From a virus: a stretch of DNA of 64,000 nt. Made by a program: the position numbers and the translations under genes. Where the stretch lies: the IMG/VR virus record IMGVR_UViG_3300017917_001112, positions 101,257 through 165,256 of that record. One strand, written 5' to 3'. Positions 3,348 through 61,813 of the stretch are shown piece after piece (the first letter of the stretch is position 1; every line of letters begins with the position of its first letter). Under the pieces are notes generated by a model. That model was given only the letters and a program-made list of their open reading frames with translations, did not search any database and was not told the origin of the DNA.

Positions 3348-4007
3348 ATGAAACTATCTAAAGACACACAAAATTTACTTAAGAACTTTGCATCTATCAA
3401 CTTGAATTTGCTTTTGCGTGAGGGAAACAAACTCTCAACTATGAGCGAAAACAAAACAATCATTTCTGAAGTTACTGTTGCTGAACAGTTTCCGCAGAAT
3501 TTTGGAATCTATGATGTAAATGAATTTTTGGCTGTGTTGACATTGTTTAATGATCCCGATTTGGCATTCAGTAATGATGTTGTAACTGTCAAAGAAGGCA
3601 AGAATCAAATCGTTTACAAAGCAGCAGAAGAAAGCACTTTGAAAACACCAAGTAAGTCTATTCAATTCCCAGAAGCAGAGATTAATTTCTCACTGTCTGC
3701 TGCGGATCTAGAACACATTATCAAATCAGCAGGTATTCTTAAAGTTTCTGACGTATCATTTATCGGCAGAGATGGTAAGTTAGTTGCTCTGGTCATCGAT
3801 AAGAAAAATCCTCTAACAAATAAATTTGAAATTGATGTTGGCACAACAGATAAAACATTCCAAGCAAACATGAAAATTGAGAATTTTAAGATGTTGCCTG
3901 GATCGTATAATGTATCCATCGCAAAAATGAAAATCTGTCGTTTCAAATCAACAACCAATGATTTAACATATTACGTAGCAGTAGAATCTGATTCAACAGC
4001 TGAGTAA
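3348..4007 (+). CDS. 45: sliding clamp gp45
   Basis: MKLSKDTQNLLKNFASIN, FGIYDVNEFL, YYVAVE; position in 45-44-62-regA cluster. Confidence 0.93.
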   Translation: MKLSKDTQNLLKNFASINLNLLLREGNKLSTMSENKTIISEVTVAEQFPQNFGIYDVNEFLAVLTLFNDPDLAFSNDVVTVKEGKNQIVYKAAEESTLKTPSKSIQFPEAEINFSLSAADLEHIIKSAGILKVSDVSFIGRDGKLVALVIDKKNPLTNKFEIDVGTTDKTFQANMKIENFKMLPGSYNVSIAKMKICRFKSTTNDLTYYVAVESDSTAE

Positions 4008-4023
4008 TTGAAGGGATTATATT

Positions 4024-4965
4024 ATGAGTCGTGATGAATTTTTATGGTGCGAGAAGTATCGCCCAAAAACTATCGATGAATGTGTTCTTCCGCAACAACT
4101 GAAGGATACTTTTAAAGAATATATAAAGAACGGACAACTTCCAAATTTTATTTTTTCTGGAAGCGCAGGTGTTGGTAAAACAACAGTTGCACGTGCATTG
4201 TGTAATGAACTTGGAGCAGATTATCTTTTTATCAACGGATCGGAAGAGAGAGGTATCGATGTATTACGAACAAAAATTAAAAGTTTTGCCTCGTCTGTTA
4301 GTCTCACAGAGGCAGGAGCAAAAGTCGTCATCCTTGATGAAGCCGACTATCTCACGCCAGACACACAAGCAGCCCTGCGTGCTTTTATCGAAGAGTTTTC
4401 CAACAACTGTAGATTCATCCTTACCTGCAACTTCAAAAACAGAATCATCACTCCACTCCACAGTCGATGCTCAGTAGTTGAGTTTCGTATTGAGTCGGCT
4501 GAGAAACCTAAGATTGCTGCGAATTTCTTTCGCAGGATTGTAGATATTCTCAACGCAGAGAGTGTTGAATCTGATAATAAAGTTGTAGCGAAAGTTGTTG
4601 AGACATTCTTTCCAGACTTCCGTAGAGTTCTAAACGAACTTCAGCGTTATTCTGTTGGTGGTCGTATCGACACAGGTATCTTAGCAAATCTTTCTGATGA
4701 ATCCATGAAAGAATTACTCGGTTATCTAAAATCCAAAGATTTTATGAAAGCAAGACTGTGGGTTGCAAAGAACAATGATATTGAGACATCTGTATTGTTC
4801 CGTAGACTTTATGACACAGCAGCAGATTTTCTTGAACAATCGTCTATTCCAGTTTTAATTTTAACTCTGGCAGATTATCAGTACAAGGCAGCATTTGTGG
4901 CTGATGTCGAGGTTAATAATGTTGCTGCGTTGATGGAGATTATTGCTAATTGTAAATTCAAGTGA
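4024..4965 (+). CDS. 44: clamp loader large subunit gp44
   Basis: LWCEKYRP, GSAGVGKTT, ILDEAD, SRC motif. Confidence 0.95.
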   Translation: MSRDEFLWCEKYRPKTIDECVLPQQLKDTFKEYIKNGQLPNFIFSGSAGVGKTTVARALCNELGADYLFINGSEERGIDVLRTKIKSFASSVSLTEAGAKVVILDEADYLTPDTQAALRAFIEEFSNNCRFILTCNFKNRIITPLHSRCSVVEFRIESAEKPKIAANFFRRIVDILNAESVESDNKVVAKVVETFFPDFRRVLNELQRYSVGGRIDTGILANLSDESMKELLGYLKSKDFMKARLWVAKNNDIETSVLFRRLYDTAADFLEQSSIPVLILTLADYQYKAAFVADVEVNNVAALMEIIANCKFK

Positions 4966-4972
4966 GGTTTAT

Positions 4973-5356
4973 ATGACACCATTTGATTTTATTAATTCCA
5001 TCAATCAAACAAAAGATGCTAACATAATTAAGGAACCACAGGCTGAGAAAGACTACAAAGCATTCATTATTAACAGGGGTCTAGCATACTTCCCAGACAC
5101 TGTTTTACAAGCCAACGAAATGAATCGTCGTCCATGGACTCCAAGGGACTGGCAATTTTCGTTTTTGCTAAATAGTATTACCAAGAAAAAACGATTCAGT
5201 AAATGGGCTGAAAAACTGCCCAAGAACGAAGACTTGGACTTGGTTATGCAATACTATGATTATAGTAAACAAAAAGCAATGGCTGTTCTGAACTTATTGA
5301 CACCAGAGCAGTTGGCTATGATAAAACAAAAATTCGAAAAAGGTGGAAGACTATGA
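4973..5356 (+). CDS. 62: clamp loader small subunit gp62
   Basis: FIINRGLAYFPDTV..ANEMN, KKKRFSKW; synteny. Confidence 0.9.
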   Translation: MTPFDFINSINQTKDANIIKEPQAEKDYKAFIINRGLAYFPDTVLQANEMNRRPWTPRDWQFSFLLNSITKKKRFSKWAEKLPKNEDLDLVMQYYDYSKQKAMAVLNLLTPEQLAMIKQKFEKGGRL

Positions 5357-9340: not shown

Positions 9341-9517
9341 ATGTCAGGTGCTTATATTGTAACTGCTTATTATAAGGGTGTCCGAGTAAGAACAGAATAC
9401 TGTGATAACTGGTTAAGAGCAGAAACTGTTGTTTCAGAATTGAAAAACATGAGTTTTCAAATTGATGAAGTTCGAATGAAAAAGGTGGAGGATGATGATG
9501 CCGAATTGGTGCGATAA
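9341..9517 (+). CDS. hypothetical protein
   Basis: GGAGG SD. Confidence 0.6.
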   Translation: MSGAYIVTAYYKGVRVRTEYCDNWLRAETVVSELKNMSFQIDEVRMKKVEDDDAELVR

Positions 9518-10004
9518 CAGTGTGCGTCTTACGCATGAAGACAAAAGTAAAATAGATGCTCTTGAAATAGAACTTAAGAAATGGAATGACAACAACTTTC
9601 AAGATGGCGCACAAGTCTTTAACCATCTTCGTCCCCGTCCAGCAGATCAAGAAGAGAATTGGTATGACTGGAACATCAACAATTGGGGGTCTAAGTGGGA
9701 CGCCAGTATAATTGATTGGGATCGCGAAGATGACAACAACATTCATGTCTATTTTGATTCTGCTTGGTCACCACCTGTCACACTCTACGAATATCTAACA
9801 GAACAGGGTTGGCAAGTAAATGCAATTTATCATGAGGGTGGCATGGCATATATCGGTCAATACACAAGTGTAGATGGTGACGATTATTATGAATATGACA
9901 TTACTGATGAAGATTCTATTGAGAATTTACCAGAAGACCTGATCGAGTTTGCTGATTTGCGAACTGCTCATCAGGAGTGGAAAGAAAGCGAAGAACAAGA
10001 ATGA
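9498..10004 (+). CDS. YubB/Api92-like ferredoxin-fold protein
   Basis: MPNWCDN, WYDWNINNWGSKWD, FDSAWSPP. Confidence 0.75.
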   Translation: MPNWCDNSVRLTHEDKSKIDALEIELKKWNDNNFQDGAQVFNHLRPRPADQEENWYDWNINNWGSKWDASIIDWDREDDNNIHVYFDSAWSPPVTLYEYLTEQGWQVNAIYHEGGMAYIGQYTSVDGDDYYEYDITDEDSIENLPEDLIEFADLRTAHQEWKESEEQE

Positions 10005-10576: not shown

Positions 10577-13084
10577 ATGGAATTTTACACAAATGTTTTT
10601 CCCATGGGCAACAAGTTATGCGTCCGTGGGTACAGCAATGGTTTGCCGTACAAAGATAAGATAGATTTTCGCCCAACCCTTTACGTCTCGTCACCAAAGA
10701 AACATTATAGTGGCGAGATTTTTCGCACATTAGATGGTCAAGTTCTTTACGAAATCCAACCTGGATCTATCAAAGACACACGTGAATTTATTGATCGATA
10801 TAAGGGTGTTGAAAGTTTCCCTGTTTATGGTAACACAAATTACGCATACCAATATATCTCGGACACATATCGCTCAGAAATTAAATTTGATAAAGATTTA
10901 ATTAAGTGTTTCTCCATTGATATCGAAACAGCAACAGAAAGTGGTTTCCCTGATATTGAAACTGCTAATGAAGAGGTATTGTTAATTACATTAATGGACA
11001 ATAAGACAAAAGAGATTCATACTTTTGGTCGTAGTCCTTACACAGGAAACAAGGAAGTTATTTTCCATCATGTTGAAAATGAAAAACAACTTCTCGTTGA
11101 GTTTCTAACATTCTGGAAAGATAATTGTCCAGACATCGTTACTGGTTGGAATATTGGTTTCTTTGATATTCCATATCTAGTTAGACGCATCATGGTTTTG
11201 CTTGGCGAGTCACATGCAAAACAACTATCACCATGGGGTATTATCAACGAACGTCGTATTCATGTTAAAGGTAATGAAGAGATTACGTACGACATTGCTG
11301 GTGTTTCTGCACTTGATTATATTGATTTATACAAAAAGTTTACTTACTCAATGCAAGAATCTTATCGTCTTGATCACATTGCATTTGTTGAACTTGGCGA
11401 AAACAAACTAGACTATTCTGAGTATGATTCATTTAAAGATTTTTATACTCATGGTTGGAAGAAGTTTGTTGATTACAACATTCACGATACTGTTCTTGTT
11501 GACAAACTTGAAGACAAGATGAAATTGATTGAGTTGGCTATCGTTATGGCATATAACGCAAAGGTAAATTTCGATGATGTGTTTTCACAGGTAAGAATGT
11601 GGGATACGATTATCTACAATCACTTGCGTTCCAAAAACATTGTTATCCCAAACAAAACTAACAATGAGAAAGACAATGTTATTGAAGGTGCTTATGTTAA
11701 AGACCCACTTACTGGATTTCACAAGTGGGTTGTCTCATTTGACTTGAACAGTCTTTATCCGCATTTAATTATGCAGTATAACATTTCACCAGAGACTTTA
11801 ATCCAAGATTACAAACATATTGGTGGTGTTGGGTATTTCTTAGAACATGAGGAGCAAGGTGGATTTAAAGATCTAGATTATGCTTGTACAGCGAATGGTT
11901 ATTGCTATCGCAAAGACATCAAAGGATTTCTGCCTGAACTGATGGAAAAAATGTATGCTGACCGAAGTAAAGCAAAGAAACAAATGCTTGCGATTCAACA
12001 GCAGTATGAGAACACCAAGGACGCATCGCTAAAGAATGAGATTTCAAGATTGAACAATTTGCAGATGGCTTTGAAGATTGCTTTGAACTCTGCTTATGGT
12101 GCGTTGGCTAATCAATATTTCCGTTATTATGATAAACGCATGTCTGAGGGAATTACGACTTCTGGTCAGTTGTCTATTCGTTGGATCGCAAATAAATTTA
12201 ACGAATATTTTAACAAAGTAATGGGAACTGAGAAAGAAGATTATGTGATTGCTGTTGACACAGATTCTGTCTATCTTAGATTTGGACCATTGGTTGATTC
12301 TTTGTTTAGTCAGGAAGAACAGAAAGACAAAGATAAGATTGTTAAGTTTATTGACAAAATCTGTGAGGATAAAATACAGAAGTACATTGATAAGTGTTAT
12401 TCTGAATTGGCAAAGCGTCAAAATGCTTATGATCAGAAAATGATTATGAAGCGTGAAGTTATCGCAGACATGGGAATTTGGACTGCTAAAAAACGCTATG
12501 TTCTCAATGTGCATAACTCTGAAGGTGTGCAATATGCGCAACCCAAGATGAAGATTATGGGTCTTGAGATGGTTAAGTCTTCAACACCAATTGTTGTTCG
12601 CGACAAGTTGAAGGAAGCATTGAAGATTGTGATTGCTGGCGATCAACTAGAACTGCGTAAGTTTATCACTGATTATCGTAAACATTTCTATTCGTTGCCT
12701 GTTGAAGAAGTTGCTTTCCCAAGAAGTGTGAACAATCTTAAGGAATATTATGACTCTACTACCATTTATCGTAAATCGACACCGATTCATGTCCGTGGTG
12801 CTTTGATGTTTAATCATATTATCAAAGAAAGAAATCTTACGAACAAATATCAGCCAATTAAAGAGGGTGACAGAATTAAATTTATCTATCTTCGTGAGCC
12901 GAACACTATTCGTGAAGATGTAATTACATTCGCAAATGAATTACCAAAAGAGTTTGACCTACATAAATACATAGATTATGAGAAGCAGTTTGAGAAAGTT
13001 TTCCTTGACCCATTAACCGCAATTATGGATTCTATCGGATGGACAGTTGAAGAAAAGAACACTCTTGAAGATTTCTTCGCATAA
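10577..13084 (+). CDS. 43: DNA polymerase gp43 (family B)
   Basis: DIET exonuclease motif, SFDLNSLYP, KIALNSAYG, DTDS; C-terminal LEDFFA. Confidence 0.98.
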   Translation: MEFYTNVFPMGNKLCVRGYSNGLPYKDKIDFRPTLYVSSPKKHYSGEIFRTLDGQVLYEIQPGSIKDTREFIDRYKGVESFPVYGNTNYAYQYISDTYRSEIKFDKDLIKCFSIDIETATESGFPDIETANEEVLLITLMDNKTKEIHTFGRSPYTGNKEVIFHHVENEKQLLVEFLTFWKDNCPDIVTGWNIGFFDIPYLVRRIMVLLGESHAKQLSPWGIINERRIHVKGNEEITYDIAGVSALDYIDLYKKFTYSMQESYRLDHIAFVELGENKLDYSEYDSFKDFYTHGWKKFVDYNIHDTVLVDKLEDKMKLIELAIVMAYNAKVNFDDVFSQVRMWDTIIYNHLRSKNIVIPNKTNNEKDNVIEGAYVKDPLTGFHKWVVSFDLNSLYPHLIMQYNISPETLIQDYKHIGGVGYFLEHEEQGGFKDLDYACTANGYCYRKDIKGFLPELMEKMYADRSKAKKQMLAIQQQYENTKDASLKNEISRLNNLQMALKIALNSAYGALANQYFRYYDKRMSEGITTSGQLSIRWIANKFNEYFNKVMGTEKEDYVIAVDTDSVYLRFGPLVDSLFSQEEQKDKDKIVKFIDKICEDKIQKYIDKCYSELAKRQNAYDQKMIMKREVIADMGIWTAKKRYVLNVHNSEGVQYAQPKMKIMGLEMVKSSTPIVVRDKLKEALKIVIAGDQLELRKFITDYRKHFYSLPVEEVAFPRSVNNLKEYYDSTTIYRKSTPIHVRGALMFNHIIKERNLTNKYQPIKEGDRIKFIYLREPNTIREDVITFANELPKEFDLHKYIDYEKQFEKVFLDPLTAIMDSIGWTVEEKNTLEDFFA

Positions 13085-13142: not shown

Positions 13143-13388
13143 ATGACACAAGAAAATGAATTTCCGTCAATCGAAGACGTAGAAATTAAAACAACATCAT
13201 TGAACAACTTGCCCCCAAAAGTAATTTGTGAAAAACATGGAGAACTTAATGACGCATATGTGTTTAGAGTAAACATGCCAGAGTTTGGATATGAAAAAAA
13301 AACATATTGTTTAGTATGCGCAATCGAGTATCTTTCTATGATTGCTAATGAGGTTACATTCGAAGAACGTGAGGGAGAAACAAAATGA
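13143..13388 (+). CDS. hypothetical protein (possible Zn-binding)
   Basis: CEKH...CLVC; AGGAG SD. Confidence 0.65.
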   Translation: MTQENEFPSIEDVEIKTTSLNNLPPKVICEKHGELNDAYVFRVNMPEFGYEKKTYCLVCAIEYLSMIANEVTFEEREGETK

Positions 13389-14443
13389 GTTTTCTAAAAG
13401 ATATTGTAAAGGAGCTTGATAATGAATATGCGGGACTGGCTGATGATGGTGTTGTTGGTGATACATCTAATTTTATCGACACTGGTTCTTATACCCTTAA
13501 TGCTTTGCTCTCTGGTAGCATCTTTGGTGGTCTACCTGGGAACAAAGTTACAGCTTTGGCTGGTGAGTCTTCCACAGGAAAGACATTCTATGCTCTTGGG
13601 ATTGCGAACAATTTTCTTCGAACTGACGACAAGGCTGGAGTCATTTACTTTGAAACAGAAGGAGCGTTGACTAAAGATATGCTCGCTGAGCGTGGCATTG
13701 ATACTAAACGATTTATGATTGTTCCTGTGTCAACTGTTCAAGAATTTAGAACTCAAGCATCTAAGATTCTAGATGCGTATGAAAAAACATCAAAGAAAGA
13801 TCGCCCACCATTGATGTTGTTTTTAGATTCTCTTGGTATGCTCTCTACTTCTAAAGAAATGGAAGATACACTTGAGGGTAAAGATACTCGTGATATGACT
13901 CGTGCTCAATTGATTCGTGGCGCATTCCGTGTTCTTTCATTGCGTCTTGCTAAACTCGATGTCGCTATGGTTGTTACGAATCACACATATGCAGTTGTTG
14001 GTGCTTATATGCCAACCAAAACTATGGGTGGTGGTGACGGATTAAAGTATGCTGCTTCAACGATTGTTTTTCTTTCTAAGTCTCAGGACAAAGATGGAAC
14101 TGAAGTTGTTGGTAATATCATTAAATGTAAACTTGAGAAATCTCGTTTTACACGTGAGAAGTCTATGGTTGAAACTAAACTTTCCTTTACTAAAGGATTA
14201 GATCGTTATCATGGTCTAGCAGATTTGGCTGTTGAAGCAGGAATCTGGAAATCGCAAGGTGGACGAATTGAAGTACATGATGGTAGAAAAGTTTTCGGTA
14301 AAAACATTGCAAACAATCCTTCTGACTTCTTCACCGAAGACATCCTAAAGCAACTTGACATTTACTGTAAATCAAAGTATAATTATGGTTCAGATGATGT
14401 TGTTCAACAAGAAGAAGTAGAGGAAGAATTTAATGAGAATTGA
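13385..14443 (+). CDS. uvsX: RecA-like recombinase UvsX
   Basis: GESSTGKT, DSLGML, DMTRAQ, NHTY, GGG.GLKYAAS. Confidence 0.95.
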   Translation: MSFLKDIVKELDNEYAGLADDGVVGDTSNFIDTGSYTLNALLSGSIFGGLPGNKVTALAGESSTGKTFYALGIANNFLRTDDKAGVIYFETEGALTKDMLAERGIDTKRFMIVPVSTVQEFRTQASKILDAYEKTSKKDRPPLMLFLDSLGMLSTSKEMEDTLEGKDTRDMTRAQLIRGAFRVLSLRLAKLDVAMVVTNHTYAVVGAYMPTKTMGGGDGLKYAASTIVFLSKSQDKDGTEVVGNIIKCKLEKSRFTREKSMVETKLSFTKGLDRYHGLADLAVEAGIWKSQGGRIEVHDGRKVFGKNIANNPSDFFTEDILKQLDIYCKSKYNYGSDDVVQQEEVEEEFNEN

Positions 14444-15815
14444 AAATCAAATTTTTACTAATTTGATAACTCAGGAAGCGTATGCAAGAAAGGTTATTCC
14501 TTTTTTACTTCCTGAGTATTTCATGGATCGTAGCGATCGTGTGATTTATGAGGAATATAACAAATTCTTTTCGCAGTACAACACAACTCCAACTGTTGAT
14601 GTGCTGAAGATTGAGATTAGCAACAGAAAAGATATTTCTGAAGAAGAAGTAAAAAAAGTTAACGAAACACTTGATACTCTTAGCGATGAACAAACTAATA
14701 TTGATTGGATAACAGACAGCACAGAGAAATTTTGTAAAGACAAGGCAGTTTACAATGCTATCATCAACTCTATCAAAATTATTGAGGGCAGGGATAAAAA
14801 TCACAACCAAGATGCGATACCTTCTCTACTTTCTAAAGCATTGGCTGTTACTTTTGATTCTCACGTGGGTCATGACTATTTGGAAGACAGTGATGCTCGC
14901 TATGATTTTTATCATAGGGTTGAAGAGAAAATTCCTTTCGATATTGACTTGCTCAACAAAATCACGAACGGAGGACTCTCAAAGAAAACTCTAAACATTA
15001 TTCTTGCAGGAACAGGTGTTGGTAAATCTTTGGCTATGTGTCATTTCGCAGCATCATCTTTGCTTCAGGGTAAAAATGTGTTATACATAACTATGGAGAT
15101 GGCTGAGGAGAGAATCGCAGAGCGTATTGATGCCAATTTGCTAGAGTTGACTATGGATTCTTTAAAGATGGTTGAGAAACGTGTTTTCGATGCTAGACTT
15201 GAAAAGATTCGCAATAAAACACATGGTAAGTTGATTGTTAAAGAATATCCTACTGCTTCTGCCCACGCAGGACACTTCCGTGCTTTAATTGAAGAACTGC
15301 GTATGAAGCGTGATTTTACACCTGATATTATTTTTATTGATTATCTTAATATCTGTTCTTCTCAGCGTCTTCGTATGGGAGCAAATGTAAACTCTTATAC
15401 ATATATTAAAGCGATTGCTGAAGAGTTGAGAGGATTGGCAGGTGAATATAAAGTGCCTTTGGTGAGCGCAACGCAAACTACTCGTTCTGGTTATGCTAAC
15501 ACAGATCCAGGACTTGAAGATACTTCAGAGTCATTTGGTCTGCCAGCAACAGCAGATTTGATGATTGCGTTGATTGCCACTGAAGAACTTGATCAAATGA
15601 ATCAGATTATGGTTAAACAATTGAAAAATCGTTATTCTGATCCAAACTTCTATAAGCGTTTTGTTGTTGGCGTTGATAGAAAACAAATGAGATTATACAA
15701 TGTTGAAATGAGTGCTCAACTACATATAGAGGGACAGGGAACTGTTTCTGATGATACGCCACTATTTGACGCAACGAAATTTGGCAAACGCATTAAGAGT
15801 GAAGCATTCGAATAA
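14433..15815 (+). CDS. 41: replicative helicase gp41
   Basis: AGTGVGKS, ITMEMAEE, IDYLNI, SESFGLPATAD, KQLKNRY. Confidence 0.96.
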   Translation: MRIENQIFTNLITQEAYARKVIPFLLPEYFMDRSDRVIYEEYNKFFSQYNTTPTVDVLKIEISNRKDISEEEVKKVNETLDTLSDEQTNIDWITDSTEKFCKDKAVYNAIINSIKIIEGRDKNHNQDAIPSLLSKALAVTFDSHVGHDYLEDSDARYDFYHRVEEKIPFDIDLLNKITNGGLSKKTLNIILAGTGVGKSLAMCHFAASSLLQGKNVLYITMEMAEERIAERIDANLLELTMDSLKMVEKRVFDARLEKIRNKTHGKLIVKEYPTASAHAGHFRALIEELRMKRDFTPDIIFIDYLNICSSQRLRMGANVNSYTYIKAIAEELRGLAGEYKVPLVSATQTTRSGYANTDPGLEDTSESFGLPATADLMIALIATEELDQMNQIMVKQLKNRYSDPNFYKRFVVGVDRKQMRLYNVEMSAQLHIEGQGTVSDDTPLFDATKFGKRIKSEAFE

Positions 15816-15825
15816 GGAGAAAAAA

Positions 15826-17187
15826 ATGGTTCAGGTTATTGTAGCAGACAAACTTTATGATTCAGAACATCTACTTGGTATGTTCGTTGACGAATCGCAT
15901 TATGATATTCTTATTGAAGAAGATACGGATTGTTATCTCCCAGCTGATTGCGATATCGCAACACAAGCGAATTGTGATAAAGATTGTTCTGCTTGTGATA
16001 TTGGAGCCGATGAGCGTAGAATAGCATTTAAGTTTAGAAAGAACTTCTTCTCAAAAGAAGAACAAGAACAAGCATATGTTGGTTTGCGTGAAGCAGCAGT
16101 TCGTACAGAAAATCGTGGATTGGCTTCAGGAATTAAAGCAGGAACATCAGTAACAGGCGAAGGACGTGAGTGGGTTACTAATTATCAAGAAGAAATGATT
16201 AATGGAATTCTATCCTCAAGAACTGCTCAGTTGGTTGATGGGGATATTATTTTAGAAATTCGAGAAAAATATCCAACACCAGAATCACGTTTGAAAGCAT
16301 TGGGTTCTGGTAAGAACAATGTTTGGGTTATCTCACGTTTCCGTGGTAAATTTAATTTTGATGAATGGGTTGATTCAATCATTCCTTTAGATCGCGAAGC
16401 AAGAGCAAAAGCAACTGAAGAAGTTATGACAATGATTAGCGAAACTTCTTATGGCAATCCAGTTGACTCAGGTATCGCAGGTTGGTTTGACAGATATCCA
16501 CGTATTCCTTATGGTAGAGCAACAACATATACAAGAGATAATCCAGAAAAATTTGCTATGGCGTACCCATTTCTACAACATTTGGCAAAAGGATTTAAGG
16601 AGTTACTACCACAAAGATATGCTGCGCAAAAAGCAGCAACAGATAAAATTGATCCAAGATTCGTAATTCCTGAGACACCATTTACTACTGTAACTGTTAA
16701 CAAAACATTTAGAACTGCAGCGCATCGCGATGCTGGTGACTTTTCTGATGGTCTATCTAATTTGCTTACACTTTCTAATGATGGTAGATATACTGGTGGT
16801 TATTTGATTTTTCCAGAGATTCGTATAGCAGTTAATGTACGACCAGGAGATTTGCTTCTTGTGAATAACCATGAGGTAATTCATGGAAACACACCGATTG
16901 TTTGTGAAGAAGGTTCTGAGCGTGTTTCGCTGGTTGTTTATCTTCGTGAAAACATGTTAGAACTTGGTTCTTATGAATATGAAAATTCAAGATTCGAATT
17001 TGTTGAGTCACGCAGATTGAACAAAGAACATCCACTTTGGAAAAAATTGTGGAATGGTGTTTCTCCAGGAATGTGGGAAGAACAAGAATGGTACGACTTT
17101 TTAAAATCACGTCCGAATGGCGAACAAATGCTTGCGAAGTATCACCCGAAAGCACTTGAAGCATCTCTAGATGAATTCTTTGCTTGA
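15826..17187 (+). CDS. TET/JBP-family 2OG-Fe(II) methylpyrimidine dioxygenase
   Basis: FTTVTVNKTFRTAAHRDAGD (HxD), GGYLIFPE, GDLLL..NHEVIHGNT (distal His), ERVSLVVYLRE (2OG Arg); C-terminal LDEFFA. Confidence 0.82.
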   Translation: MVQVIVADKLYDSEHLLGMFVDESHYDILIEEDTDCYLPADCDIATQANCDKDCSACDIGADERRIAFKFRKNFFSKEEQEQAYVGLREAAVRTENRGLASGIKAGTSVTGEGREWVTNYQEEMINGILSSRTAQLVDGDIILEIREKYPTPESRLKALGSGKNNVWVISRFRGKFNFDEWVDSIIPLDREARAKATEEVMTMISETSYGNPVDSGIAGWFDRYPRIPYGRATTYTRDNPEKFAMAYPFLQHLAKGFKELLPQRYAAQKAATDKIDPRFVIPETPFTTVTVNKTFRTAAHRDAGDFSDGLSNLLTLSNDGRYTGGYLIFPEIRIAVNVRPGDLLLVNNHEVIHGNTPIVCEEGSERVSLVVYLRENMLELGSYEYENSRFEFVESRRLNKEHPLWKKLWNGVSPGMWEEQEWYDFLKSRPNGEQMLAKYHPKALEASLDEFFA

Positions 17188-17212
17188 CATTAATCTATAT
17201 ACATAGTAAAAT
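17184..17212 (+). promoter_or_regulatory. sigma70-type promoter
   Basis: TTGACA-17-TAAAAT. Confidence 0.65.
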
Positions 17213-17231
17213 ATAGTTTTGGAGATTTAAT

Positions 17232-18065
17232 ATGGCATGGCAATCAAGTTATTGGTCTTGTTCTAAATTTGCTGATTGGCTTCGTGGAACACCGAAGCCA
17301 GAAGCAGAAACAAGTAAAGGATGGCGTCTTTGGAGAGAAGCATCTGAGAAAGAACATCCATTTCGTTTTTGGTTGGCGGAAGAAGGACTTGATCACATTC
17401 AGGACTTCGTAACTTATCCAAGCAGAAAAGTAAACGATTTAATGTATTATTTGAATAATCGGTTTGTTACTAAAACGCATGCACTAACATCTCACCCTCG
17501 TGATATTCCTCGTGGCGAATGGCGAGATGTTGGTAATCGTTTTCTCCCCTGCCTGTTCAATGAACTTGTTGATTTTGTCGAGGTCGAACAAGCATGGCAT
17601 CACTGTATGTGGGATGACAAAGCACGAAAAGAATTTAAAGTGCCTTGGACACGCAGGGGTTTTTTACGTCTTAGAACTTGGCGTTGTCCAGAAGCAGGGT
17701 TGTCTTATCTGAATTGGGCAAAGGATTTGACTAATGCTGAGTTTCTTGATGAAGATAAGAAACATGAAGCAGAGTTGACACATCAAGCACTTGCTGCTCG
17801 CGAGATTCTAGAACTCTATCACTGGTGGAAAGAAGTTTATTCAAAACGTCTAGATCCATACGATTCTAGTGGTTGGTCTGCTATTTGCGAGAGAGAACGC
17901 AAAGAAGGACGTGACTTACTTGACATGGAAGACAGAAACGAAACAGAGCGTGAAGAGAGAAATAATTCTCTAGATCTTCTACGTAAAATAGAAGAAGAAT
18001 ACGAAAAGGAAGACGAAGAAATGATGATTCGTCTTATCAAAATCCGTCAATCACTGTGGACTTAA
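17232..18065 (+). CDS. conserved hypothetical Trp-rich protein
   Basis: 277-aa ORF with GGAG SD. Confidence 0.75.
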   Translation: MAWQSSYWSCSKFADWLRGTPKPEAETSKGWRLWREASEKEHPFRFWLAEEGLDHIQDFVTYPSRKVNDLMYYLNNRFVTKTHALTSHPRDIPRGEWRDVGNRFLPCLFNELVDFVEVEQAWHHCMWDDKARKEFKVPWTRRGFLRLRTWRCPEAGLSYLNWAKDLTNAEFLDEDKKHEAELTHQALAAREILELYHWWKEVYSKRLDPYDSSGWSAICERERKEGRDLLDMEDRNETEREERNNSLDLLRKIEEEYEKEDEEMMIRLIKIRQSLWT

Positions 18066-18069
18066 ACAT

Positions 18070-19413
18070 ATGAAAATCTTAATGGTAATGCATACCTTCA
18101 ATAACTTTGGAGGAATTATCAATCACTGCGAACATTTAATGGCAGGATTAAAAGAAATTGGTCACGAAGTAAATTTCGCATATCTTAAAGGCAACTCTAC
18201 TGTAAGACCAGTTGAAATTCCTTCTAAACTTGCCGAAGGTTATGAGATTGGTATTGGTTCAGGTTATCCAGTGCACCAAGGTGATGGATGGATTGCGCCA
18301 TACTATTCTTACAAAGTAAAAGAATCTGTTGACAAATTTGTTAAGACTGCCAATGAGCATGATATTGTGATTTGGCAGTCTATTTTTGGATTTAAAAACA
18401 AAGACACTGAGAAATACAAGGGTTGGTTGCCAATGGTTGAACAAGTCAAGGCAAAACAAGTTGTAATTATTCACGATGCTAATCTTAAAAAATTATATCC
18501 ATGGATTTCTCTTTATGAAAAACATTTCGCTGGTCTTGCTTGCGTTCATCCTGCAGCATACGATTCAGCAGACTTTATGTCCACACCTCGAGCGTTAATT
18601 TTGAACCCTCAGGATATTGATGGCGTACCACCTACTCCAGAGTTTGCTGGTCGCGAAAACAAAATCTTGTCAATACAGACATTCAAACGCTGGAAGCGTG
18701 TGGACGACCTTATTCGTGCTGTTCCTTACATGAAAAATGTCAAGACATTGGTAGGTGGTTATGGTATTGAGGCAGCATATATGATGTCGAAAGACAAGTG
18801 TAAAGACGAATACTTCGCAACAACACAATATGATCCAGACGTAACACCTGACCGAGAAGGAAAGCGTATTTGGGAAAACGCTGAAAACTCAGGAAATTTT
18901 GAATATCTCGGTTTTATTTCTGGAGCGAAACGTGATGAGATTCTACAAACATCTAAGTTTTTGGTTGACCCTTCTTGGAGCAATACTTTTGGTGAGCACT
19001 TCAATCGTGTTGTCGTGGATGCAATGCGGATTGGGACTGTGCCCATTGCTGTAAATTTTGGTGTTTCCAACAACGAAGAAGGTAATGGAGTTTTGTTGAA
19101 GGCTGGTGAACACTATTGTATGCTCCGCAAGGATTTTACTCCAAAACAATATGGAGAAGCAATCGCTAACTTCTGTAATATGAGCGAATCCGACTACAAA
19201 CGTATTCAGCTAAATAACTACGAACTAATCAAAAAGTTTGATCGAAAGGTAGTTGCTCAGCACTATATCGACTTGGCTATGGGTAAGGAAACAGGTTATC
19301 TAAACGAACTCAGAACCAAGACGAACCATGATCCATCTATTGTCCGAAATTCCATTAAAATGTTCGAAGAACACTTCGAACAGGCATCAGACTTGGACGA
19401 ATTCTTCGCATAA
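18070..19413 (+). CDS. GT-B fold glycosyltransferase, putative DNA-modifying
   Basis: MKILMV..FGGI..H, GHEV, IIHD, KRWKRVDDLIRA, EHFNRVVVDAMRIGTVPI; C-terminal LDEFFA. Confidence 0.8.
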   Translation: MKILMVMHTFNNFGGIINHCEHLMAGLKEIGHEVNFAYLKGNSTVRPVEIPSKLAEGYEIGIGSGYPVHQGDGWIAPYYSYKVKESVDKFVKTANEHDIVIWQSIFGFKNKDTEKYKGWLPMVEQVKAKQVVIIHDANLKKLYPWISLYEKHFAGLACVHPAAYDSADFMSTPRALILNPQDIDGVPPTPEFAGRENKILSIQTFKRWKRVDDLIRAVPYMKNVKTLVGGYGIEAAYMMSKDKCKDEYFATTQYDPDVTPDREGKRIWENAENSGNFEYLGFISGAKRDEILQTSKFLVDPSWSNTFGEHFNRVVVDAMRIGTVPIAVNFGVSNNEEGNGVLLKAGEHYCMLRKDFTPKQYGEAIANFCNMSESDYKRIQLNNYELIKKFDRKVVAQHYIDLAMGKETGYLNELRTKTNHDPSIVRNSIKMFEEHFEQASDLDEFFA

Positions 19414-19418
19414 ATGTC

Positions 19419-19447
19419 TTGACATCGAACACCTTTTAGGGTATAAT
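19419..19447 (+). promoter_or_regulatory. sigma70-type promoter
   Basis: TTGACA-17-TATAAT. Confidence 0.85.
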
Positions 19448-35848: not shown

Positions 35849-35979
35849 ATAACACTGGTACAGATAAAGATGAGTATTATGACATATTATCAACTGAAGA
35901 ATGTTTAAAAGATAGTATGCACTTAGAAAAACCCACTGAAGAAATTATAGAAAAAATGGGAGAAGATGATGAAAGTTGA
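35833..35979 (+). CDS. possible small acidic protein (48 aa)
   Basis: ORF fills the primase-thyX gap. Confidence 0.3.
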   Translation: MEKDLDNTGTDKDEYYDILSTEECLKDSMHLEKPTEEIIEKMGEDDES

Positions 35980-36646
35980 ATTGATTAGTTATTCACAACC
36001 AGCAGAATATTTTGCTGAGAATATGACAGAACTTGTTGCTTTCTGCGCACGTGTTAGTAATCCAGGAAATCAAACAAACAAAGAGACAAGTGAAAAGTTA
36101 ATCAAGTATTTGATTAAGAATCAACATTGGTCGCCACTTGAAATGGTAAATGTTTGTTTAGAAATTGAAACTACACGTGATATTGCTAGACAGATGTTGC
36201 GTCATCGTTCGTTTTCTTTTCAAGAGTTTTCGCAGCGTTACGCTGACCCAACACAAGATTTAGATTTTGTCATTCGTGAGGCAAGACTTCAAGATACAAA
36301 AAATCGTCAAAACAGTATTGAGATATCTATTGAAGATGATGACAATAGACGTCTGGCATATCAGTGGGAACAGATGCAAAAGAATGTTATTGAAAAAGCA
36401 AAAGAAGCATATACATGGGCAGTTGAGCATGGTATCGCAAAAGAACAAGCCAGAGCAGTTTTGCCAGAAGGCAACACAGTAAGTCGTTTGTATATGAATG
36501 GAACATTAAGATCTTGGATTCACTATATACAATTACGATCAGGCAATGGCACACAAAAAGAACACATTGAGATTGCAAAGGCATGCGCCAAGGTAATCGC
36601 TACAGTTTTTCCTCTATCAAAAGAATTTATCGCACAGGAGCAATAA
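35966..36646 (+). CDS. thyX: flavin-dependent thymidylate synthase
   Basis: HWSPLE, RHRSFSFQEFSQRY, LRS.NGTQKEH. Confidence 0.95.
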   Translation: MMKVELISYSQPAEYFAENMTELVAFCARVSNPGNQTNKETSEKLIKYLIKNQHWSPLEMVNVCLEIETTRDIARQMLRHRSFSFQEFSQRYADPTQDLDFVIREARLQDTKNRQNSIEISIEDDDNRRLAYQWEQMQKNVIEKAKEAYTWAVEHGIAKEQARAVLPEGNTVSRLYMNGTLRSWIHYIQLRSGNGTQKEHIEIAKACAKVIATVFPLSKEFIAQEQ

Positions 36647-54487: not shown

Positions 54488-54967
54488 ATGAGTAAACAAA
54501 CTAAGTATATCCCAGAAGTTTTTGAAGAAATTACTAAAGATCCAAAGAAGGCAGTTGAATATAAAGATGATTTCGCATTTAAAACAATTTTGAAATGCGC
54601 ATTTGATGCAGATTATAAATTCAATCTTCCTAATGGTGATCCTCCATTCAAACCTGCTGCACAACCAATAGGAATGACAAGTTCGAATTTCCGTCAGGAA
54701 ATGCGTAGAATGTATATCTTCACTAAGTTTAGTGATGTTACATCAAAGATGCGTCGTGAGCAATTATATGTTCAGTTGCTAGAAACAATCCATCCTTCTG
54801 AAGCAAAAATTTTAAATGCGATGAAAGATCAGAAATTAGATGCTCTCTATCCAAAAATTACGGCAGAGTTTGTTAAGAAAAACTTTCCTGATGTTCTGCC
54901 AGAAGGAGTGGTGGTAGCAGAACCAGCAAAAAAATTGAAAGTGAAAAGTGCAGAAAAAGTGGATTGA
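54488..54967 (+). CDS. conserved T4-like hypothetical protein
   Basis: LP.G.PPFK, RREQL..QLLE.IHP.EA. Confidence 0.75.
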   Translation: MSKQTKYIPEVFEEITKDPKKAVEYKDDFAFKTILKCAFDADYKFNLPNGDPPFKPAAQPIGMTSSNFRQEMRRMYIFTKFSDVTSKMRREQLYVQLLETIHPSEAKILNAMKDQKLDALYPKITAEFVKKNFPDVLPEGVVVAEPAKKLKVKSAEKVD

Positions 54968-55379
54968 TGCGTATCTTGACATGGCTGAAAGGTTCGCCGA
55001 ACTCAGCCACGCAAAACGTCTCAGAGTTGGAGCAATTGTGGTCAAAGACAATAGAGTCATATCCATCGGTTATAATGGAACGCCAGCAGGATGGGATAAT
55101 GTCTGCGAAGAAGTTGTCGAAACGCATGAAGATGGTGGTGTGGTTACGAAAACTAAGGATGAAGTAATCCATGCAGAAGCAAACGCAATTAGTAAACTCG
55201 CTAGAGATGGTGAAGCAGGTTTGGGTTCATCTATGTTTTTAACCCACGCACCTTGTGTTCAATGTGCGAAAATGATTTATGGAGCAGGTATTAACACTGT
55301 TTATTACAGAAACAGTTATCGAGATGAAGCTGGTATAAATTTTTTGAAGAAGTGTAACTTGGAGGTTATTAAATCATGA
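54948..55379 (+). CDS. cd: dCMP deaminase
   Basis: GYNGTP, HAEANAI, PCVQC. Confidence 0.92.
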   Translation: MQKKWIDAYLDMAERFAELSHAKRLRVGAIVVKDNRVISIGYNGTPAGWDNVCEEVVETHEDGGVVTKTKDEVIHAEANAISKLARDGEAGLGSSMFLTHAPCVQCAKMIYGAGINTVYYRNSYRDEAGINFLKKCNLEVIKS

Positions 55380-61045: not shown

Positions 61046-61813
61046 ATGGCAAAAAGAGCAGCTGTAGTAAAGATTGATAATGCTGTGAGTGAACCTAAAA
61101 CGCCAAATTCGAGACAAACAAATTCGTTAAAGATTAGGATTGATGAACTAAAAACATTTCAACCATTAACACAAAATCAAAAATTATTTTACGATGCGTA
61201 TAAGAGAGGGGATTATTTTGTTGCACTACATGGTGTAGCAGGTACAGGAAAATCATTTATCGCTGTATATAAAGCACTAGAAGAAGTACTAGATAAAGGA
61301 AACCCATTCGATAAGATTGTTATTGTTAGATCAGCAGTTCAGTCTAGAGAAATTGGGCATCTTCCAGGAGATATTGATGAGAAGATGGAAATTTATCAGC
61401 AACCATACAGACAAATATGTGAAACTCTGTTTGGTCGTAAAGATGCTTACCAAAGATTGTGTGAGCAAGGACATATAGAATTTGTTTCTACTTCGTTTAT
61501 TCGAGGTATGAGTTTTGATGATTGTATTATTATCGTTGATGAAATGCAGAACATGTCATTTGAGGAACTTGATACAGTTATGACACGTGTTGGTCATCGT
61601 TCGAAAATTATTTTCTGCGGTGATTATCGTCAGACTGATCTTAAGAAAGGTAATGACAAGTCTGGTTTGTTCAAATTCTTTGACATCGCTCATCATATGG
61701 GCGCATTTACAAGAATTGAATTTACTCCAGATGATATTGTTCGTAGTTCATTAGTTAAAGATTATATCCTCGCAAAAATAAAATACGAGGATAACATAGA
61801 AAAAGGAAATTAA
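61046..61813 (+). CDS. phoH: PhoH-like ATPase
   Basis: GVAGTGKS, IGHLPG, RGMSF, VDEMQN, GDYRQTD, IVRS. Confidence 0.93.
   Translation: MAKRAAVVKIDNAVSEPKTPNSRQTNSLKIRIDELKTFQPLTQNQKLFYDAYKRGDYFVALHGVAGTGKSFIAVYKALEEVLDKGNPFDKIVIVRSAVQSREIGHLPGDIDEKMEIYQQPYRQICETLFGRKDAYQRLCEQGHIEFVSTSFIRGMSFDDCIIIVDEMQNMSFEELDTVMTRVGHRSKIIFCGDYRQTDLKKGNDKSGLFKFFDIAHHMGAFTRIEFTPDDIVRSSLVKDYILAKIKYEDNIEKGN

Follow-up and report, generated by a model that had tools for sequence, protein, structure and literature searches.

5-Methylpyrimidine dioxygenases (5mYOXs) of the TET/JBP family have been described from phages in several forms. TET89 makes 5-hydroxymethyluracil (5hmU) (Burke et al., PNAS 2021, PMC8256090), and phage 5mYOXs without a neighbouring C5-methyltransferase have been shown experimentally to make the same base (O'Toole et al. 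2026, PMC13229309). ParB-independent and ParB-dependent 5mYOX subclasses have been defined (O'Toole 2025/2026; PNAS 2026, PMC13229309), and a 2023 preprint on glycosyltransferases (GTs) suggested that many contigs carrying a 5mYOX with a GT make 5hmU (bioRxiv 10.1101/2023.12.21.572611). Here we analysed a 64,000-nucleotide stretch of viral DNA (the window), positions 101,257 to 165,256 of IMG/VR virus record IMGVR_UViG_3300017917_001112, in which a TET/JBP-family dioxygenase gene and a GT gene lie among T4-like replication genes. Both enzymes end in a short peptide resembling the C-terminus of the phage's own gp43 DNA polymerase, by which they probably bind the gp45 sliding clamp, and the base oxidised is likely to be thymine. 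A previous sequence-only reading of the window had proposed that the pair makes glycosyl-5hmU by a pathway like that of base J, and had taken described phage TET clusters to be paired with a C5-methyltransferase; the latter view is outdated, as a C5-methyltransferase is found in just ~6% of 5mYOX pathways, in which GT neighbours are frequent (O'Toole et al. 2026, PMC13229309).

The dioxygenase gene (15826..17187, + strand) starts with an ATG 7 nt behind AAGGAG and encodes a protein of 453 aa. The protein scored 83.3 bits against the Pfam family Tet_JBP (PF12851, cut-off 34.9; 85.9 bits in the genome scan), and phrog_24024 matched over its full length (1.4e-146). Tet_JBP was the sole Pfam family above cut-off, and no SNF2-family or J-binding domain was found on the protein. 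In an alignment of 41 non-redundant IMG/VR orthologues with 55-96% identity, residues H300, D302, H349, H353 and R366, which include the Fe(II) triad HxD...H and the 2-oxoglutarate-binding Arg, were invariant. The best Foldseek matches of an AlphaFold2 (AF2) model (pLDDT 76.5) were CcTet, human TET2, NgTet1 and CMD1 (E 1e-9 to 1e-6, probability 1.00, TM 0.37-0.53); a sequence search of the PDB gave marginal matches only, and the HRD motif lines up with the HRD of TET2. Based on the Pfam score, the catalytic residues and the predicted double-stranded beta-helix fold, the enzyme is a member of the TET/JBP (5mYOX) superfamily.

Compared by description with the phage T-dioxygenases of clades C1 and C2, the enzyme is similar in being an Fe(II)/2-oxoglutarate enzyme of TET/JBP fold with no neighbouring C5-methyltransferase, with GT or GATase/amino-acid:DNA transferase (AADT) neighbours and with a variable insertion, and its predicted product is likewise post-replicative 5hmU. 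It differs in size, ~450 aa against ~290-300 aa, in an insertion (residues ~103-182) that is much larger, and in the placement of the module inside T4-like replication genes. It has an N-terminal segment and core in common with the 288-302-aa enzymes of phages HTVC112P and P12024L; the insertion at ~103-182 and a C-terminal extension of 62 residues (392-453) are extra, and a Cys-rich insert at ~38-60 is optional. The nearest catalytic core in an isolated phage is that of the TET of pelagiphage HTVC112P (43% identity over 209 aa), whose gene lies directly behind a ParB-like gene. Full-length homologues of 42-48% identity were found in the isolated T4-like phages DLP6, Cr30 and C48C1, in which GenBank names them 'SNF2 DNA repair protein' or hypothetical. 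A total of 127 IMG/VR stretches carry the dioxygenase.

The C-terminal extension ends in SLDEFFA (codons at 17164..17184, + strand), a putative gp45-binding peptide. The motif L[DE][DE]FFA ends exactly three of the 932 open reading frames (ORFs) of at least 40 aa in the genome: gp43 (TLEDFFA), the dioxygenase, and the GT (DLDEFFA, codons at 19390..19410, + strand). The three ends are also described by the pattern [ST]L[DE]xFF, the tail of the GT itself being DLDEFFA. The tail was retained in 41 of 42 dioxygenase orthologues and in all 13 GT and all 13 gp43 orthologues compared, as well as in 113 of 116 full-length representatives of the GT clusters. In the dioxygenase, L448 and F452 were at least 90% conserved while the linker before them varied, and the orthologous tails included TLDDMFG, SLEEFFG, DLESLFG and others. 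The single tail-less dioxygenase orthologue (L036:8001-10696) has GQNLMEMDL at its end and shares ~100 nt with the GT ORF; a frameshift or an assembly error, rather than natural variation, appears to be the cause. Partner enzymes of the dioxygenase elsewhere also carried tails, namely the TET-associated glycosyltransferase (TAGT; TLESFFG), GNAT (SLEEFLV) and AADT (GLEKFFT and GLEALW). The tails of the dioxygenase and gp43 of the same phage were close in DLP6 (ATLGDFFV and ATLDSFFA) and in C48C1 (SLEEFFV and TLEDFFG), with a loose likeness only in Cr30 (GATLF and DLSSLFD). Homologues from HTVC112P, P12024L and S-CBWM1, phages without a T4-type replisome, had no tail.

In T4 and RB69, experiments have established the acidic-hydrophobic C-termini of gp43, gp55 and gp33 as interchangeable gp45-binding epitopes, and T4 gp55 has the same layout of a conserved end peptide after a variable linker (PMC2988020). 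The peptides described here are similar to these gp45 ligands in standing at the very end of the protein behind a variable linker, in their acidic-hydrophobic character and in being common to the polymerase and its putative fellow clients; they differ in that the clients would be DNA base-modifying enzymes. Given the shared and conserved gp43-type tails, the presence of gp45 and its gp44/gp62 loader in the genome and the precedent of the T4 ligands, docking of the modification enzymes on gp45 is the simplest reading, and on these sequence grounds we consider it probable that the dioxygenase and the GT bind the clamp through their tails. The gp55 late sigma factor of the genome (G000:C1:83814-84374, outside the window) ends in NLESFLGDENGS, with an NLESFLG motif followed by five residues. 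A gp33-like protein (G000:C1:18734-19006, also outside the window) ends in ATLDV, and its hydrophobic end is much shorter than that of T4.

Two observations weigh against clamp docking. The tails of gp43 and the dioxygenase did not co-vary strictly by lineage; in one genome (G001), gp43 ends in SLEDFFS and the dioxygenase in TLENMFA. A looser form of the tail pattern is not specific: about 3.6 chance occurrences of it are expected per genome, and it was also found at the end of a baseplate protein (PF12322) in three genomes; the strict form is confined to gp43, the dioxygenase and the GT. In three related genomes the baseplate protein (G000:C1:24723-25433, - strand, outside the window; L092:5095-5808) ends in [IL]DSFF, which either resembles the clamp tail by coincidence or is conserved for an unexplained reason.

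The shared peptide could instead serve as a degradation or assembly tag or contact another partner, or it could be a by-product of promoter-like DNA downstream. A TTGACA-like element was indeed found at most 10 nt after each of the gp43, dioxygenase and GT genes, and the baseplate protein ends in the loose form of the motif. The T4 alpha- and beta-glucosyltransferases are not known to use such a tail. However, the tail codons of gp43, the dioxygenase and the GT differ from one another, and therefore the tail is not a DNA repeat; the peptide is conserved through many sequence variants; it is found together with T4-type gp43 and gp45, and homologues from phages without these two proteins do not carry it. 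The tails of T4 gp43, gp55 and gp33 are experimentally established gp45 ligands (PMC2988020), and the gp55 of this genome bears NLESFLG near its end. These data make a role other than clamp binding rather unlikely.

The GT gene (18070..19413, + strand) encodes a GT-B enzyme of 447 aa (GT1/GT4-like), a putative DNA 5hmU glycosyltransferase. It scored 38.9 bits against Glycos_transf_1 (PF00534, cut-off 26.4) and 27.1 bits against PF13692 (cut-off 27). Its family comprises 314 metagenome clusters, on contigs of up to 173 kb. No relatives were found among 50,697 deposited phage genomes, and a PDB sequence search gave no match, hence none to the solved DNA GTs. To survey the neighbourhood of the dioxygenase, 79 loci with orthologues of at least 55% identity were compared; a GT-B gene directly follows the dioxygenase gene in 25 of them, overlapping it at times. 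In other lineages the same slot is occupied by TAGT or AADT enzymes, which argues for DNA as the acceptor of the GT. Acceptance of DNA (5hmU) is thus a putative assignment suggested by gene context and the tail.

If the acceptor of the GT were a cell-envelope component, a protein or a small molecule, 5hmU or a further oxidised form would be the end product. The sole source annotation of the gene, 'glycosyltransferase involved in cell wall biosynthesis', fits such a role, as do the lack of sequence likeness to solved DNA GTs and of any match in the 50,697 phage records, and unrelated GTs are common in T4-like phages. Against it stand the position directly behind the dioxygenase in 25 loci, the use of that slot by the DNA-modifying TAGT and AADT enzymes elsewhere, and the gp43-type tail in 113 of 116 relatives, which would be sensible only for a protein acting on DNA. 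We therefore regard a non-DNA acceptor as improbable.

The sequence-only reading had rested on the absence of a C5-methyltransferase and a dCMP hydroxymethylase from the window and on the presence of genes for dTTP supply, and had left room for a methyltransferase elsewhere in the genome. Its observations hold, and the absence extends to the complete 165-kb genome: no match at E<=1 was obtained with PF00145 (C5-methyltransferases) or with PF00303 (ThyA, dCMP/dUMP hydroxymethylase and dCMP methylase), nor with the profiles of N4/N6 (PF01555) and Dam-type (PF02086) methyltransferases. The genome-wide search it had suggested therefore removed the reservation about DNA outside the window. PF00145 was also absent from 10 more genomes bearing orthologues; among these are four IMG/VR genomes rated 90-100% complete and the isolates DLP6, Cr30, C48C1 and S-CBWM1. 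The dTTP-supply genes were confirmed to be present: ThyX, a flavin-dependent thymidylate synthase for canonical dTMP (35966..36646, + strand; PF02511, 148.9 bits), and dCMP deaminase (54948..55379, + strand; PF00383, 74.5 bits). Since there is no ThyA-family enzyme, hydroxymethylation by the known nucleotide-level ThyA-family route is excluded, and the oxidation has to occur on the DNA polymer. In the glucosylation of 5-hydroxymethylcytosine (5hmC) in T-even phages (gp42 plus alpha- and beta-GT), a T4-like phage likewise adds sugar to a hydroxymethyl-pyrimidine, but there the hydroxymethyl base is formed at the nucleotide level before replication.

The orthologue neighbourhoods point to the same base. 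In 35 of the 79 loci a GATase and/or an AADT adjoins the dioxygenase, often together with GNAT, and orthologues of 55-60% identity are located in thymidine-hypermodification operons. The transferase in those 35 loci matches PF18724, and PF18746 is named 'glutamyl/putrescinyl thymine pyrophosphorylase'. GATase, kinase and AADT have been termed 'known T-hypermodification machinery' (O'Toole et al. 2026, PMC13229309). Besides the 25 loci with GT-B, a TAGT (PF20691) was present in 7, the contig ended early in 10, and none of these was found in 3. In sister lineages (L055:9320-11674, L069:9295-13760, L084:13050-14030 and L059:6547-7335) the dioxygenase heads a GATase-GNAT-AADT operon or is followed by TAGT. 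Two conserved genes of the sister operons encode proteins of ~298 and ~443 aa without a family match, and the kinase that would be expected might be among them.

Thymine is favoured as the substrate because no C5-methyltransferase is encoded in this genome or in ten others, because the partners of the orthologues are the AADT/GATase thymidine machinery, and because the nearest core, that of HTVC112P, has the ParB-adjacent layout of proven ParB-dependent T-dioxygenases. These data suggest that the dioxygenase most likely oxidises thymine, and on balance we lean towards glycosyl-5hmU as the product of the pair. A thymine target and glycosyl-5hmU, as first proposed for the window, thus remain the best-supported reading, now for reasons of genome content and orthologue operons; the argument from a purge of restriction sites, which had been offered with it, proved invalid.

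That argument held that the apparent purge of the T-free sites CCGG and GGCC fitted a thymine target. The purge itself is genuine and extreme: the 165 kb contain 0 CCGG, 8 GGCC and 35 CGCG, with ~191 of each expected from base composition, and these three are the lowest of the 256 tetramers by Markov observed/expected ratio. However, the cyanophage P-RSM4, which has no TET, showed the same in a 50-kb stretch (0 CCGG, 4 GGCC), and in the non-cyanophage carriers DLP6, Cr30 and C48C1 the avoidance of CCGG and GGCC was not seen. Therefore the purge is uninformative on the target base, and it looks like a trait of the lineage or the host. In the DLP6 region examined (L001, KU682439.2), GGCC was found 0 times in 17 kb at 55% GC.

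Several points count against thymine as the target. There is no residue rule that separates T- from 5mC-oxidising 5mYOXs (5mC, 5-methylcytosine), and characterised enzymes can oxidise both bases (Burke 2021, PMC8256090); active-site residues were therefore not used for the call between T and 5mC. In principle, a C5-methyltransferase of the host could supply 5mC. A review lists the DNA of DLP6 as 'restriction enzyme resistant' with a panel including T-free sites such as that of HpaII, and modification of T only would not explain resistance at such sites, although the digest sentence of the primary paper is garbled and DLP6 DNA may bear other modifications. The dioxygenase orthologue of DLP6 ends in a gp43-like tail, and no GT gene adjoins it. 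Finally, AGCT and GTAC, which contain T, are likewise avoided in the genome, being reduced to 0.40-0.49, so protection of T-containing sites would be partial at best.

Some of these points bear on a pathway to glycosyl-5hmC, in which the dioxygenase would oxidise 5mC made by a host or an unrecognised phage C5-methyltransferase, as in clades A and B of Burke 2021, and the GT would glycosylate 5hmC. In every phage TET-plus-GT pathway whose chemistry has been characterised to date, the products are 5hmC glycans (bioRxiv 10.1101/2023.12.21.572611; PMC8256090), some T-dioxygenases oxidise 5mC as well, and the resistance reported for DLP6 includes T-free sites. The pathways of clades A and B are similar to the one proposed here in that a post-replicative 5mYOX is followed by a GT-A or GT-B enzyme to give glycosylated hydroxymethyl-pyrimidines, but they need an adjacent GpC-specific C5-methyltransferase, which was found neither here nor in the 10 relatives. 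The lack of PF00145 and ThyA-family genes in the complete genome and in the 10 other carriers, and the ties of the orthologues to AADT/GATase thymidine machinery, argue against glycosyl-5hmC. Host methyltransferases acting on CCGG and GGCC would also find almost no target, with 0 and 8 sites. Altogether, it is hard to credit glycosyl-5hmC as the product.

As an explanation of the whole locus, a module by which a T4-like phage hypermodifies thymidine after replication seems to us somewhat more probable than otherwise. Replication would proceed with canonical deoxynucleoside triphosphates, as suggested by the presence of ThyX and dCMP deaminase and the absence of a ThyA-type hydroxymethylase. 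The Fe(II)/2-oxoglutarate dioxygenase would then oxidise the C5-methyl group of thymine in DNA to give 5hmU, and the GT-B enzyme would put a sugar on the hydroxyl of 5hmU to give O-glycosyl-5hmU. Both enzymes would dock through their gp43-like tails on gp45 clamps loaded on new DNA, and this docking would couple modification to replication.

The chemistry proposed is analogous to that of kinetoplastid base J (JBP1/JBP2 plus JGT), in which a TET/JBP dioxygenase converts T to 5hmU before O-glycosylation; to this extent the comparison with base J drawn in the sequence-only reading stood. It did not extend to the enzymes: JGT is of the TAGT/GT-A type, whereas the transferase here is GT-B (PF00534) and TAGT occurs in sister lineages only, and the dioxygenase has neither the J-DNA-binding nor the SNF2 domain. 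With the ParB-dependent 5mYOX class the dioxygenase has a C-terminal extension in common. That class has a cognate ParB, whereas the ParB family (PF02195) gave no match at E<=1 in the complete genome, and the gp43-type tail suggests gp45 as the DNA-bound partner instead. We therefore put forward, tentatively and with slightly more doubt than confidence, a third, clamp-dependent class of thymine dioxygenases in T4-like phages, in which gp45 and not a ParB-like activator would be the DNA-bound partner, and in which interchangeable toolkits (GT-B, TAGT, GNAT and AADT) would share the tail and act from a clamp 'toolbelt' behind the fork.

The source record is 165,256 bp long with direct terminal repeats and is rated 100% complete; the window is its final stretch, with almost all genes on the + strand. 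The genome is T4-like and related to the Kyanoviridae, and its host is uncertain. The sliding clamp gp45, the proposed docking platform (3348..4007, + strand), matched PF09116 (39.9 bits) and PF02916 (24.6 bits), shows 34-38% identity to the clamps of DLP6 and Cr30, and has 375 homologues. It is followed by the clamp-loader subunits gp44 (4024-4965) and gp62 (4943-5356), together 4024..5356 on the + strand, which were identified by tblastn with the annotated loader subunits of DLP6 (1e-120 and 7e-23). The gp43 DNA polymerase (10577..13084, + strand; 835 aa; phrog_262, E=0), whose end TLEDFFA is the reference clamp-binding tail, is succeeded by UvsX (13385-14443) and the gp41 helicase (14433-15815). 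An ORF of 170 aa (9492-10004) matching the Api92-like ferredoxin-like domain (PF18406, 28.1 bits) sits 5' of an exonuclease-like ORF and gp43.

Directly 3' of gp41 the order is dioxygenase, an ORF of 277 aa, and the GT-B glycosyltransferase. In the TET-less cyanophage P-RSM4 the slot after gp41 is occupied by mazG, and therefore the module is located in a variable island. No homologues of psbA, talC, mazG, pstS and dam of P-RSM4 were found in the complete genome; cobS, phoH, hsp20, regA and thyX were found (window positions 61046-61813 and 80-1240 being cited alongside). The host may thus not be cyanobacterial despite the Kyanoviridae-like replication genes.

The ORF between the two enzymes (17232..18065, + strand) encodes a Trp-rich helical protein of 277 aa; neither Pfam nor PHROG gave a match, and its AF2 model (pLDDT 56.7) was too weak for a fold search. 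Its family is very large, with 1848 clusters at 50% identity in varied phage contexts, and has the invariant end MMIRLIK[IV]R[QH][SG]LWT. No relatives were found among the 50,697 deposited phage genomes, and an Atlas search gave viral hypotheticals only. Homologues are also found on phage contigs that have neither TET nor GT, and the gene is absent from many TET-GT loci, namely those in which the two genes adjoin. The ORF was considered as a ParB-like activator or a member of the module and was rejected as such, with no Pfam or PHROG match and with its family found away from TET and GT; it is probably a passenger gene outside the pathway.

Three sigma-70-like promoters were called in this region from matches to the sigma-70 consensus alone. 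One (17184..17212, + strand; 11 of 12 matches) overlaps the stop of the dioxygenase gene, whose TGA sits within the TTGACA box, and lies 5' of the 277-aa ORF and the GT. The other two, each with 12 of 12 matches, lie just 3' of the GT stop (19419-19447) and upstream of gp41 (14355-14383).

The idea of thymine oxidation is not new; it was published for phages between 2021 and 2026, often with GT neighbours. In the literature searched, no report was found of the long T4-like dioxygenase family, of a chemically demonstrated phage glycosyl-5hmU, or of clamp-binding tails on DNA-modifying enzymes or gp45 clients of this kind. The tail on both modification enzymes is apparently the new part. The dioxygenase/GT family is abundant in environmental T4-like phages, and the cultured carriers DLP6, Cr30 and C48C1 open a first step to testing.

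How thymine dioxygenases locate and cover a genome has a known answer for one subclass, a ParB-like activator. A clamp-docking tail would give a simple mechanism that couples modification to replication, and it parallels the ParB case, where a DNA-clamping partner supports the 5mYOX. If the enzymes are clamp-dependent, this could explain why some ParB-less phage 5mYOXs showed no activity on their own in E. coli, and a clamp tether predicts that gp45 and its loader may have to be supplied in heterologous assays. An analogous clamp tether is the PCNA-binding PIP box of eukaryotic DNMT1. If true, tail-mediated docking on gp45 would be the equivalent, in viruses of prokaryotes, of PCNA-coupled maintenance methylation.

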